DNA of 64,000 bases from Squalus acanthias (taxonomy: Eukaryota). The position numbers were made by a program, and so were the translations under genes. The notes under the pieces are model-generated. The model was not told where the DNA came from and searched no databases. It worked only from the letters and a program-made list of their open reading frames with translations. This document shows, piece after piece, positions 60,097 to 64,000 of this stretch (position 1 is its first letter; each line of letters opens with the position of its first letter). Location: contig CM059431.1 in NCBI GenBank assembly GCA_030390025.1, positions 98,334,001 through 98,398,000 of the forward strand. The letters run 5' to 3'.

Positions 60097-60709
60097 TGAA
60101 TCATAGAATGGTTACAGCAGGGAAGGAGGCCATTCGGCCCATCGAGCCCATGCCGGCCCATCGAGCCCCCGCCCTTTCCCCCTATCCCTGCAAATTTCTT
60201 TCCTTCAGATACTTATCCAACTCCCTTTTGAAAGCCGTGATTGAGTCTGCCTCCACTACCCTTTCAGGCAGTGCATTCCAGATCTTAACCACTCGCTGCG
60301 TAAAACAGTTTTTCCTCATGTTGCCTTTGGTTCTTTTGCCAATCACCTTAAATCTGTGTCCTCCTCCTTCACTATGTCTATGGCAGCATCCTCTTCCTTG
60401 GTGAAGACAGATGTAAAGTACTCGTTTAGTACCTCAGCCATACCCTCTGCCTCCATGCATAGGTCTCCTTTTTGGTCCCTAATCGGCCCCACCCCTCCTC
60501 TTACTACCCTTTTACTATTTATATACCTATAGAAGACTTTTGAATTACCTTTTATGTTGGCTGCCATTCTATTCTCATACCCTCTCTTTGCCCCTCTTAT
60601 TTTCTTTTTCACTTCTCCTCTGAACTTTCTATATTTAGCCTGATTCTCAGATGTATTCTCGACCTGACATCTATCATACGCGCTCTTTTTCTGTTTCATC
60701 TTACTCTCT
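60097..60709 (-). mobile_element. CR1 fragment (ORF2 linker fused to 3' end); continues at 63943-64000 beyond the Harbinger insertion
   Basis: ORF 60343-60855 (-): IKGNSKVFYRYINSKR...MAEVLNEYFTSVFTKE. CR1 UTR and tail at 60097-60360. Confidence 0.9.
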
Positions 60710-61237
60710 GGGCTCGATTTTGCCAGGCCCGAGGAGGCGGGATTGGAGGCGTGTGAGGTGTTAAAGTCACAAAAAATGGCGGGCGGGCCCAATCCCGCCT
60801 CCATCCCGCCTCCGAGCAATTTTCCCAGAATCGGGGTTTCAGACCTCGTTTCCATCCCACCTCCAAGAGGCAGGATAGGCCCTTAAGGCCCTTAACAACC
60901 AGTTAAGTGCCTCTATAATCCCATTTTGAGAGGCCTTTATGACTTTTAGACTTTTCCCCAATCCTACACGCCTCCTCTGGAACACGCCAGGTAATCCTGG
61001 CGGCCTCACAAGTGGATTGCTTACTAACAGCTGCAGCTCCACCATTAAAAAGGAGCTTTCAGCAATCATCATTTGCAGGTGGCAGAACTTTGTCGTCTCA
61101 GGTCTGAGGGAACTTTCAGCAGGCCTACTCATTGTTGTGGAAGTTTGGAGCTTGACACCCATCTCCAGTGTGACCTCCTGGGAAACCCCTCTCCACCTTG
61201 ACTGAGCGCTTCCTCAACTGAGGCATATACCAGAAGC

Positions 61238-61461
61238 ATGGGAACCATTTATTTCCTTTCCTCCTGGACATCAGATTCGGATGAAGACCAGCCGCAGCAG
61301 TAGAACCATGAGCAACAGCACCACCAACAGCAGCAGCAATAACAGGAGCGCCAAGCTGCTGCTCACCCACCTGAAGCTGCACAGGCCAGAAGGCGCCAGC
61401 GCGTGACCACATTGCTGCCCGGGATGCAAGGGACGCACTCATGTTGGCCAGATTTGCTTAG
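61238..61461 (+). pseudogene. Remnant of Harbinger transposase: N-terminus joined to C-terminus, DDE core absent
   Basis: ATG-GTIYFLSSWTSDSDEDQPQQ*NHEQQHHQQQQQ*QERQ...ARRRQR, then a frame change to HIAARDARDALMLARFA*, resembling HARBI1-like C-termini. AATAAA at 61681. Confidence 0.6.
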
Positions 61462-61719
61462 CCTGCACAATCAAACACTTTTGCCTCGCACCTTCTTACC
61501 ACAGCATCGACAATGGACAAGAACATGCGGATTCCTATCACTCTGACCACCATACTGACAATTGCAAGTCGCCCTAAGCCCTCAATGTGGAAATCCAATT
61601 TGCGAAATGACACAGGCCACAACATCAACAGTTTGCCATCAGAATTTTTTATCACAACAAGCAACTGATAGCATTTCAAAAATAAACACAACATAACACC
61701 CAAGTGACTACCCTTATGA

Positions 61720-63661
61720 CTACTTGTGCATTATCTTCCTCTTACGCATGCTCCTACGTGGTGCTTCCCCTGCGGCTTCAGCAGATGTGGAGGCCCCTTG
61801 CTCACTTTCTTGCTGCTCCTGTCTCGACACCTTTGGCGGGCGTCCTCTGGGTTTGCGAACCTGTGAGGGCTCGGCAACAGTCTGCTGCTCCTGCGGCTGT
61901 GCAGGGGATGAGACGCCCATCTCAGTTGGGTGAGGACTCTGGTGGGGCTCTGACCAAGGGCTTTGCAGTGGCATGGTCGTGTGAGCGCTTGGAGAGGAAC
62001 CCCCACTTCCTTGTTGTCTGTCACCAACATCCCTCTCATGGGTCAGCCCCACTTCAGAGCTAGCAAGTGGCTTGACAGCACCTTGCTGCACTTCAGGGGG
62101 GCCATGAGGACCCGTTTCTACACTGGAAGTCCTACTCCAGAGGACTTCCATGAAGGTCTGGTTTCTATGCTCAATAGATGACCATTGCTGCTCAAGAGAT
62201 GCCAGTCTATTCTGAACAATGACCATGTTTTCAACACTCTGGTGACTTAGCTTCTCCATGGCCGTAGCCATCCCCTCCTCTACCGTAGCCATCCTTTCCA
62301 CGGAGGTTGCCATCCTTTCCGTGGTGCTGCGTTCATGCGCCAACGCCTCCACAAAGGCTCTGCTCATGTTCGCGATGGACTCCTCCATTCGCTCCTCACT
62401 CGCAGCGACCCTGGAGACAAAACCTGCAAGAGCCTCCTGCACCTGTTCCTGGAGTTCCAGCACCGCTCTCCTTCTGGATGGACCCGGAGGCACAGGGTCG
62501 ACATGCAGCTGAGCCGAGCTGGGAGAGTCCTGCGCCCTCTGACTCGGACTCTCCACTGCTGTCCCTGTCTCTACCATCTGCTGATGCTCACTTGTGAGCT
62601 GTGATACACCAGGTGACAACACTACTCTATCTCGCGAAGGTCCCACCGAGGTGTGAGTGTCTGCGCTGGTGCTGGGTGCGCTGAATTCTGCTGACGTTAC
62701 GCCCTCAGAGGTTGCAGCTTCCTCTGAGGAGTCTGGAAGCTCAGGCTCTTCCTCCTGGACAGTGGGGACGGGGGCTTTCGATGGTCCTGTGGGGGAGTAA
62801 AGGAAAGAGTTAGACATGTGAGGTAAAGGTTGCATGCACATTGAATTGTGCAGATGATCATAAGTCAATCTGTTAGAGCATTAGAATCATTATCAGTCAC
62901 TCATGCAATGTCAATGAGAGAGATGCCAAACTATTCTGTCACCAGCTTGCTGTGATGCGCCCGTCTGTCCGTCCCCCACTTGCGAATCTTCCTCAACACC
63001 GGCGATTTCCAGGGCCGCCTCCTCCGAGGTGGTGAGCTGGGCTACTGAAGGTGGCCCTCCTCCTGTCCTCGCTCTTTCCCTCTTATTGTGGGCTCTCTTT
63101 TCCTGCAATGAGGGACACAAGTGGAGTTTAAGTGAGAACGAAGGAGTGAGTGTAGAGAATCCATAGCATAGATGCTTAGAAGGAGACAAAGGGCCCTCCC
63201 TGTGTGTTGTAAGTTGTTGTCATTGCATCACAGTGATAGGGAGTGTGAGGGCTGCATGGTCGAATAGTTAAGTGAATGTGACCATAGAGAGAGAGGGAAT
63301 GGGTAAGGGTGCAGGGATCTAAGTGTCAAGTGGGATGTGGAGGAAGAGGTTGGCAAAGCTGAGTGCTGGTGAGGAGAGGCGATGGGGATCAGATGGAGGG
63401 TGATGGGAAAGTCAAACTCACTTTTCCTGTGCGGAGAAGGTCATGAAACCTCTTCCTGCATTGTAGCCAGATTCTGCGGCACATAGACATTGAGTTGACC
63501 TCCTGGGCCACTTGCAGCCACACAGCTTTAGTCTGCTGGGGAGGCTTTTTCCTCCATGAGGAAGGGAAGAGCACCTCCTTATTTGCTCTTGCTCCCTCCA
63601 CCAGAGCTTGCAGGGCGGCGTCATCGAACCTTGGAGCACACTTTGGCCTACTGCTGGACAT
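61720..63661 (-). CDS. Harbinger Myb/SANT-like (trihelix) DNA-binding protein, 3 exons: 63661-63422, 63102-62943, 62786-61720; 488 aa
   Basis: GT-AG introns with matching phases (0 and 1). RFDDAALQALVE...W..VAQEVN...R.W.QCRKRFHDL then EKRAHNKRERARTGGGPP. Central coiled coil, AT-hook KPRGRPPK, basic C-terminus RRSMRKRK; no stops. Confidence 0.85.
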
Positions 63662-64000
63662 AGTTGCTGAATGAAGCGATCACAACAATGGCCATAAAGT
63701 TTGCAGTCTCCAGAAGAAGCAATGCTGCTTGCAGGCCTTAAATCCTGCAGCACTGATGACGTCATCGGAGGCGACTTTCAGGATGAAAACACTAATTGGG
63801 CCAGGGGTTTCCACACGCTGGAAATCAAGTGCCCAATTAGGGGAAAATCGCACTTTTTTCCCACTTCACATCGGAGTCAGGATCCTGACATGAAAACCAC
63901 CTGACACGCCCCCAACCCGCCCCCAATGGCAAAATCTAGCCCTCTATCTCTTTCATCATCCAGGGATCTCTGACTTTAGTTGCCCTGCCTTTCCCCTTAG

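Follow-up and report, generated by a model that had tools for sequence, protein, structure and literature searches.

The window analysed here, a stretch of 64,000 nucleotides (64 kb) of Squalus acanthias DNA, contains a PIF/Harbinger element at positions 60710-63942. It is a non-autonomous member of its family that lacks the transposase core. The features of the element are as follows.

60707..60709, no strand: left copy of the target-site duplication (TCT), read directly
60710..60725, plus strand: left terminal inverted repeat, 16-nt core, from the inverted pair; in a gapped alignment, similarity to the right end runs on to about 60770
60733..60864, no strand: left subterminal repeats of GGAGGCGGGATTGGA in both orientations, from a motif count; candidate binding sites for the Myb protein
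61238..61461, plus strand: transposase remnant, in which about 55 codons from the N-terminus are followed, out of frame, by about 17 from the C-terminus, DDE core absent; from peptide matches to relatives
61397..61402, no strand: deletion junction, about 1.0 kb of the transposase gene missing; homology to a related element stops and resumes here
61720..62786, minus strand: Myb gene exon 3, 1067 nt (1064 coding plus the stop codon at 61720-61722), from the gene model and shark-protein alignment
62787..62942, minus strand: intron 2, GT..AG; GT and AG both kept in 28 of 30 copies
62943..63102, minus strand: Myb gene exon 2, 160 nt, from the gene model
63103..63421, minus strand: intron 1, GT..AG; GT kept in 30 of 30 copies, AG in 28 of 30
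63422..63661, minus strand: Myb gene exon 1, 240 nt, start codon at 63661-63659; Myb/SANT-like domain at 63634-63425 by Pfam match
63927..63942, minus strand: right terminal inverted repeat, from the inverted pair with the left repeat and gapped alignment
63943..63945, no strand: right copy of the target-site duplication (TCT), read directly

Ends and Myb/SANT gene of the element

The two arms of the terminal inverted repeat (TIR) pair at 15 of 16 positions (94% complementary), and their similarity reaches about 50-60 nt when gaps are allowed. TCT stands at both edges of the element as a 3-bp target-site duplication (TSD). Both ends were located by a strict pattern in 15 of 30 family copies, and the 3-nt flanks were identical in 11 of these 15; a 3-bp duplication is therefore the rule for the family. 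The insertion site lies inside a LINE reading frame, and a search of the 64-kb window found no further Harbinger copies. With up to three mismatches, GGAGGCGGGATTGGA matches seven times in the window, as against 2.1 matches expected by chance, and four of the seven fall within 60733-60864. These subterminal GGAGGCGGGATTGG repeats are candidate sites that the Myb protein may bind. A preliminary description of this DNA had recognised a Harbinger element with a convergent gene pair, TIRs and a TCT duplication, and all of these identifications hold.

The Myb gene, on the minus strand, comprises three exons with a total length of 1467 nt (488 codons). It has no internal stop, and both introns are bounded by GT and AG, in agreement with the intact spliced gene described earlier; the previously proposed 62943/62786 splice junction is the correct one. 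The exon 1 product matches the Pfam profile Myb_DNA-bind_5 over residues 10-79 (E 7.5e-10; 39.1 bits, cut-off 21.7). The exon 3 product contains an acidic, Ser-rich region, 7-residue repeats and a basic C-terminal tail (61735-61758). It also carries an AT-hook-like KPRGRPPK at amino acids 445-452 (61831-61854), which is a motif call only, with no Pfam match. Alignments to shark proteins P0001 and P0004 run through the exon 2/3 junction. The only relatives of the product in the protein database are shark proteins that are 36-50% identical to it and belong to other Harbinger lineages. Contigs of nine small sequencing runs, which are only guessed to be RNA (90% likeness), cover the introns as well as the exons. 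Among the 15 joints listed for these runs (136 more exist), none lies at 63422/63102 or 62943/62786, and the runs are uninformative on splicing and expression.

The transposase deletion and the undeleted relatives

The transposase gene is reduced to a remnant of 224 nt with two stops and no catalytic core, as had been noted before. The first 20 or so and the last 17 or so codons of the remnant match the transposase N- and C-termini of a related element on C8 and of an undeleted relative, L057. The remnant is recognised only through such comparison: on its own it gives no Pfam match and no tblastn signal, and a Pfam search of all frames of 60839-61730 returned nothing. Thus the PIF-type DDE transposase (Pfam DDE_Tnp_4) is represented in the window copy by terminal remnants only. 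Both stops are private changes, with the T at 61301 present in one of 30 copies and the T at 61340 in three of 30.

In L057, a DDE_Tnp_4 gene occupies exactly the place where the window copy has its gap. Element positions 1-696 and 689-1364 both have counterparts in L057, where about 998 nt of extra sequence separate the two aligned parts, and the related element on C8 is likewise collinear with the window copy across a single gap. The extra stretch of L057 matches DDE_Tnp_4 with E 1.5e-27 (profile positions 43-158) and 1.3e-4 (profile positions 1-40), and its transposase carries a frameshift. L057 is the sole undeleted relative that was read, over 2.4 kb that cover the first 354 coding nucleotides of its Myb gene. 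Its right arm is 93% identical to the window element and its left arm only 85%; L057 therefore does not appear to pin down the direct parent of the deleted subfamily.

The family was counted across the genome with 30-mer probes at up to three mismatches, and the reversed-pattern control gave zero matches every time. The counts are approximate, since the junction probe is rich in CpG and cross-matches to related subfamilies may be included. The preliminary description had placed the deletion junction within 61380-61420 and suggested a search for further copies of it; the junction was found at about 61397-61402, and its 30-mer has 2,663 matches genome-wide. A probe for the start of the undeleted transposase has 2,982 matches. 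The sum of the two, 5,645, agrees with the family total given by probes for the left internal region (5,235), Myb exon 1 (5,535) and Myb exon 3 (6,187). The family thus has about 5-6 thousand copies and makes up about 0.5% of the genome, in which other families are larger. For the left 711 bp, 40 matches were scored; each of them runs across the junction, with an identity of 93-94%. The deleted form, at 90-91% identity, is also present at L053-L056, four sites of the exon 3 probe for which no junction match with 0-1 mismatches is listed. Judged from this shared junction, the loss of about 1 kb is one ancestral deletion that was then multiplied to at least 2,663 copies. The alternative raised in the preliminary description, that this copy is very young and its deletion unique, is wrong, since the deletion is family-wide and the window copy differs from the column majority of 30 copies by 2.8%. 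A further derivative, seen in contigs of two runs, skips 61372-62433 and is without the 3' half of Myb exon 3.

Open transposase frames are common among the relatives. By hand count, stop-free open frames of at least 409 amino acids contain 45 of the 150 scored transposase matches, and sources of transposase in trans are therefore plentiful. At three of 12 comparable C1 sites among the exact matches listed, the distance from the undeleted-transposase probe to the Myb exon 3 probe downstream of it is 1.63-1.66 kb. The most abundant transposase family, with a 391-aa product (L039-L050), was considered as a source and rejected, as it has no nucleotide similarity and no tblastn match to the element. 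The proposal that the element is the helper half of a split two-component family does not hold, because undeleted relatives roughly equal deleted ones in number, L057 carries the DDE_Tnp_4 gene at the site of the gap, and open transposase frames are abundant.

Neutral decay of the Myb gene

The preliminary description took the contrast between a decayed transposase and an intact Myb gene as a sign of selection on the Myb protein. The contrast gives no support to such selection, as it goes back to one deletion of about 1 kb that reached at least 2,663 copies, and not to a gradual decay of the one gene under protection of the other. The fate of the Myb gene was followed in a sample of 30 full-length copies, which are the best matches to the window copy and not a random draw. 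The frame is open in three of these copies and broken in 27. In a wider hand count, 49 of 115 scored exon 3 matches were stop-free. No internal stop is present in the column majority of the 30 copies; the Myb gene of the founder was therefore intact, and nothing more is needed to explain the occasional open copy.

The pattern of substitution is neutral. Exons differ from the column majority by 3.0-3.75% and are thus no less diverged than introns, at 2.2-2.4%. Singleton changes comprise 161 synonymous, 412 non-synonymous and 23 stop changes, compared with 156.7, 416.1 and 23.2 expected. The resulting omega for these copy-specific changes is about 0.96 (p 0.69); dN/dS among copies was a check named in the preliminary description. 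For shared, non-singleton variants omega is 0.87 (p 0.29), a shift toward weak purifying selection that is not significant. The window copy itself has 41 private changes, 30 non-synonymous and 11 synonymous, with 10.8 synonymous changes expected, and its probability of having acquired no stop is 0.19. Purifying selection on the Myb coding sequence was thus detected neither among the 30 copies nor in the window copy, and the claim that selection had kept the gene is unsupported. The open frame of the window copy is a matter of luck and not of preservation.

The most probable explanation (probability about 0.85) is that the window copy is an ordinary, high-copy internal-deletion derivative of a PIF/Harbinger family that is mobilised in trans and whose Myb gene decays neutrally. 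A single deletion of about 1 kb would have taken the DDE_Tnp_4 core out of a two-gene element and spared its termini, its subterminal repeats and the convergent Myb/SANT gene in full. As its ends are intact, undeleted relatives could mobilise the deleted element in trans with their transposase and presumably also their Myb protein. In this way it would have attained a copy number similar to theirs. After insertion each copy would decay neutrally, leaving the Myb frame open by chance in about one in ten.

Alternative readings and known systems

The 3.2-kb derivative equals the 4.2-kb parent in copy number, which size alone does not predict; the retained Myb gene may therefore have contributed. 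The Myb-only derivative might have been favoured as a source of the DNA-binding and nuclear-import subunit in trans, or as a modulator of transposition by dosage, so that retention of the gene aided its spread. The dosage variant may be loosely likened to the repressor-encoding deletion derivatives of other transposons. This reading is unlikely. It is in keeping with the intact Myb gene of the founder, with a single deletion form that makes up about half of the family, and with the omega of 0.87 for shared variants, but the departure from neutrality is not significant and 27 of 30 copies are broken. The similar counts for the left internal region and for the Myb exons also fit it, as they reveal no large class of shorter derivatives that retain position ~300. 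However, the derivative that has lost the 3' half of Myb exon 3 shows that the gene is not required in cis, undeleted relatives are so abundant that an extra supply of Myb protein is unneeded, and a star-like burst would leave almost no time for selection. The partition proposed for Caenorhabditis inopinata (PMC13668399) is comparable and counts in favour.

Early exaptation by the host, in which this locus would be kept as a Myb/SANT-AT-hook gene like NAIF1 and the MSANTD genes, was also inferred in the preliminary description and is highly improbable: in the window copy neither the ORF nor its start codon nor any of the four splice sites is damaged, and Harbinger Myb genes have been repeatedly domesticated in vertebrates (PMC9392472), but the private changes are split as randomly expected, the TIRs and TSD are intact, the element sits within a LINE reading frame, two further copies of the 30 are equally open, and the database relatives are only those distant shark proteins of other Harbinger lineages.

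Autonomous vertebrate Harbinger elements, for example zebrafish Harbinger3_DR, form a two-protein system, as reportedly described by Kapitonov and Jurka (2004) and by Sinzelle et al. (2008). The present family shares with Harbinger3_DR the TIRs, the 3-bp TSD, a Myb/SANT-like gene, subterminal repeats near the ends and, in its undeleted relatives, a PIF-type DDE transposase. The window copy differs in having no transposase core, and its Myb gene differs in its three exons and AT-hook-like motif. Classical non-autonomous DNA transposons that arose by internal deletion include Ds from Ac and mPing from Ping. The window element resembles them in its one internal deletion and intact ends and in its presumed amplification by the parent's proteins; unlike them, it has a small deletion (about 1 kb of about 4.2 kb), and a whole second gene is spared. 

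The requirement of Harbinger for both proteins is restated in PMC2836001 and PMC13668399. The latter (Sato et al. 2026) describes Harbinger-1M_cIno of C. inopinata, which has kept a Myb/MADF gene, has no DDE transposase ORF and has multiplied. According to the same study, the nematode has 258 elements, mostly short and MITE-like, and a single DDE locus is still intact; the MADF domain is preserved at 14 of 19 MADF-only loci, expression is seen for several MADF genes, and the two functions reside on separate elements. The window element is similar in retaining a Myb-type gene without a DDE ORF, in being amplified and in having to move in trans. In contrast to the nematode as described there, thousands of undeleted relatives exist here, the transposase frame is open in many of them, and the majority of Myb copies are broken. 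With 2,982 matches to the undeleted form, this family does not have the split arrangement proposed for C. inopinata, which would require two-gene elements to be absent or dead. NAIF1 and MSANTD2 are domesticated Harbinger Myb genes (PMC9392472) that share with the present gene a Myb/SANT-like DNA-binding domain and a Harbinger origin. They are single-copy host genes under purifying selection and without TIRs, whereas the Myb gene studied here is neutral, lies between intact TIRs and TSD and has thousands of copies.

Taken alone, the window element matters little, as it is a textbook deletion derivative whose open frame is explicable without selection, and Myb-only Harbinger derivatives are already known from a nematode (PMC13668399, 2026). 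However, it documents a very large and apparently fairly recent Harbinger expansion in an elasmobranch genome. The elephant shark, the one cartilaginous fish in which Harbinger elements had been surveyed earlier, had none according to PMC9179366. It is improbable, though worth stating, that thousands of Myb-only copies provided the DNA-binding and nuclear-import half of the Harbinger machinery in a distributed manner, or regulated its dosage, and so let the deleted element spread like its parent. If true, vertebrates would have a counterpart to the functional partition that has been proposed for C. inopinata, and the few open copies, the window copy among them, would be raw material for domestication of a Myb gene. 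The near 1:1 ratio of two-gene to Myb-only forms provides a natural data set for the question, already raised for nematodes in 2026, of whether retention of the Myb gene helps a Harbinger derivative to spread.

Structure of the element and its gene

The window element is an insertion with well-preserved ends and a complete Myb gene. Its main features are as follows.

Features of the window element
60710-63942: whole element, bounded by 16-nt terminal inverted repeats, GGGCTCGATTTTGCCA and TGGCAAAATCTAGCCC, paired at 15/16 positions
63661-63422, minus strand: Myb gene exon 1
63102-62943, minus strand: Myb gene exon 2
62786-61720, minus strand: Myb gene exon 3

On re-reading, the ends, the TCT flanks and the gene model of the preliminary description are exact to the base. 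Alignment with gaps allowed extends the end-to-end similarity to about 50-60 nt, and TCT on both sides forms a 3-bp target-site duplication. A strict pattern located both ends in 15 of 30 examined copies, and 11 of these 15 have identical 3-nt flanks, varied in sequence and mostly A/T-rich. The left subterminal 130 nt hold four of the seven GGAGGCGGGATTGGA matches of the whole window, in both orientations. From what is known of Harbinger3_DR, the Myb protein would bind these subterminal repeats. Around the insertion lies a LINE-like reading frame (60343-60709 and 63946-64000, minus strand) that the element splits in two; its peptide reads ...DPWMMKEIE to one side of the insertion and SKMKQKKSAYDRCQ... 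KVFYRYINSKR... to the other. A Pfam search of this 179-aa frame gave no match.

The three-exon Myb reading frame was confirmed at 1467 nt and 488 codons, with GT..AG introns and no internal stop. The first 80 residues of the product match Pfam Myb_DNA-bind_5 (E 7.5e-10), and Pfam gave no match beyond them. The remainder, acidic and rich in serine, carries a short 7-residue repeat, a basic tail and, near the end, an AT-hook-like motif called by eye (KPRGRPPK, aa 445-452). The exon 2/3 junction is supported indirectly; proteins predicted in another shark align across it without a break. Relatives of the exon 3 product in the protein database are four shark proteins only, at 36-50% identity.

A family-wide deletion of the transposase core

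Taken alone, 60839-61730 matches nothing in Pfam and nothing in the commonest transposase of the window's genome. The reduced transposase previously described here (about 224 nt, two stops) is proven to be a remnant by a relative. One copy of the family, L026, sits within a related Harbinger that is 73-77% identical to the window element and has a DDE_Tnp_4-type transposase gene exactly between window-element positions 693 and 823. The N-terminus of this transposase, MGTIYILSSWSSDSEEQQP, matches window MGTIYFLSSWTSDSDEDQP, starting at 61238, and its C-terminus, ...HTRDALIHARFA before the stop, matches window ...ARDARDALMLARFA before the stop, ending at 61461. The two stops are late private changes, found in 1/30 and 3/30 copies. 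In the alignment, left homology ends and right homology starts at about 61397-61402, and about 1,007 bp of the related element are missing. Since the remnant is 224 nt long, the deletion is out of frame. The nesting host belongs to an older two-gene family (L051+L052, contig C8 of the window's genome G000, about 21898500-21906900), whose copies are 85-92% alike; L026 sits inside its Myb gene, and a short derivative (left ~346 nt plus right ~214 nt) adjoins it.

The deletion is family-wide and not special to the window copy. Scored matches to the whole 3,233-bp element number at least 40, with 91-95% identity and mostly full length. With its left 711 bp as the query, the junction is crossed by every one of the 40 scored matches, at 93-94% identity.

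Matches to 30-mer probes in the 3.7-Gb genome containing the window (genome-wide, at most 3 mismatches; no match for any reversed control)
Deletion junction: 2,663
Myb exon 3: 6,187
Myb exon 1: 5,535
Left internal region: 5,235

Contigs from a public run follow the window sequence to 61402 and then diverge into other sequence, and a 30-mer of this undeleted form is found 2,982 times in that 3.7-Gb genome (control 0). Undeleted relatives are thus roughly equal in number to deleted copies. The sum of both forms, 5,645, agrees with the totals of the other probes, and the family therefore has about 5-6 thousand copies, around half of them deleted. Among runs X1-X15 (six organism labels, five studies), 19-69% of sampled Myb-gene words are present, and in two of the organisms, C and D, contigs read straight across the deletion junction. 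It may be that several related species share this family together with its deleted form.

The undeleted relative L057 is 85% identical to the window element over element positions 1-696 and 93.3% identical over 689-1364; about 998 nt separate the two aligned segments. This extra stretch matches DDE_Tnp_4 (E 1.5e-27 and 1.3e-4) and is split by one frameshift. The C-terminal half of its transposase gave 150 scored matches at 86-94% amino-acid identity, 45 of which (hand count) are stop-free within open frames of at least 409 aa. The contrast between its left arm (L057:81-729, 85%) and the segment right of the deletion point (L057:1727-2401, 93%) could be a sign of mosaic subfamilies or of recombination between them.

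A search for complementary transposase-only elements had been proposed, and no sign of such a class was seen. When 12 exact undeleted-probe sites on contig C1 were set against the exact exon 3 matches among those listed, 3 had exon 3 at 1.63-1.66 kb downstream, about the share expected, given divergence, if all undeleted copies carry the Myb gene. A second Harbinger transposase family, present in far greater numbers (L039-L050, e.g. G000:C8:102652042-102652500), has no nucleotide similarity to the window element. Its 63,885 first-look candidates include 150 scored DDE_Tnp_4 matches, all above the Pfam cut-off and mostly within frames open for about 384-392 aa; it may be young, as many frames look intact.

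Decay of the Myb gene

The Myb gene is not protected by selection. Its decay was followed in the 30 best full-length copies, a set that includes the window copy and was picked by likeness to it and not randomly. Start, splice sites and frame are all intact in only 3; in the other 27 the gene is broken by premature stops or frameshifts, or by loss of the start or of a splice site. By hand count, 49 of 115 scored matches to exon 3 are free of stops. Copies diverge from the column majority, the consensus of the 30 copies, by a mean of 3.0-3.75% in exons, 2.2-2.4% in introns and 3.7-4.2% in non-coding arms. Length-changing indels affect exon 1 (63422-63661, 240 nt) in 9/30 copies and exon 3 (61720-62786, 1067 nt) in only 1/30, possibly because of an indel-prone run in exon 1.

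Mutational opportunity was weighed separately for CpG transitions, other transitions and transversions. Singleton changes number 161 synonymous, 412 non-synonymous and 23 stop, against 156.7, 416.1 and 23.2 expected (omega ~0.96, p 0.69). Shared variants number 82, 161 and 5, against 74.4, 164.9 and 8.7 (omega ~0.87, p 0.29). The dN/dS among copies, a check suggested earlier, is in neither case significantly below 1. In the window copy, 41 coding positions depart from the majority; 30 of these changes are non-synonymous and 11 are synonymous, against an expected 10.8 synonymous. Placed randomly, 41 such changes leave the frame stop-free in 19% of cases; taken together with the indel-free and site-intact shares of the 30 copies, this is close to the observed 3/30. 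The anatomy in the preliminary description was correctly read. Its inference of selection or exaptation is not supported: the broken copies and the singleton omega speak against selection on the Myb protein, and the synonymous count of the window copy against host exaptation.

Origin of the deleted form

The window element is a non-autonomous PIF/Harbinger member and does not qualify as a domesticated Myb gene. In Caenorhabditis inopinata, Harbinger derivatives with only the Myb/MADF gene are described that have multiplied and rely on a DDE source in trans (September 2026, PMC13668399). Unlike the window family, that family has just one intact DDE locus, lacks any live two-gene element, and has mostly intact MADF loci with measured expression. 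A survey of Harbingers in fishes reports none in elephant shark and calls for a look at further cartilaginous fishes (PMC9179366). The literature searches made here, which covered Harbinger in sharks and in cartilaginous fishes generally, brought up no account of such a family.

It is possible, though unlikely, that the retained Myb gene helped the deleted subfamily to succeed. The column majority has no internal stop, and therefore the founder's Myb gene was whole; half of the family is one deletion form, and the shared-variant omega is slightly under 1. However, a further derivative, seen in contigs of two runs (X10 and X9), skips 61372-62433 (joint 61371/62434, ~1,063 nt), which removes the remainder of the transposase remnant and cuts Myb exon 3 down to its 5' half.

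In the most likely reading, which needs no such help, a two-gene Harbinger underwent a single internal deletion that destroyed the transposase and left the ends and the neighbouring gene. The undeleted relatives, present in their thousands, would have offered the trans requirements, transposase and presumably Myb protein, and the deleted form would thus have been copied in trans in the same burst. All copies have drifted since, and their distance of about 3% each from the common form suggests that the burst is not recent. The window element is, in summary, an ordinary finding.
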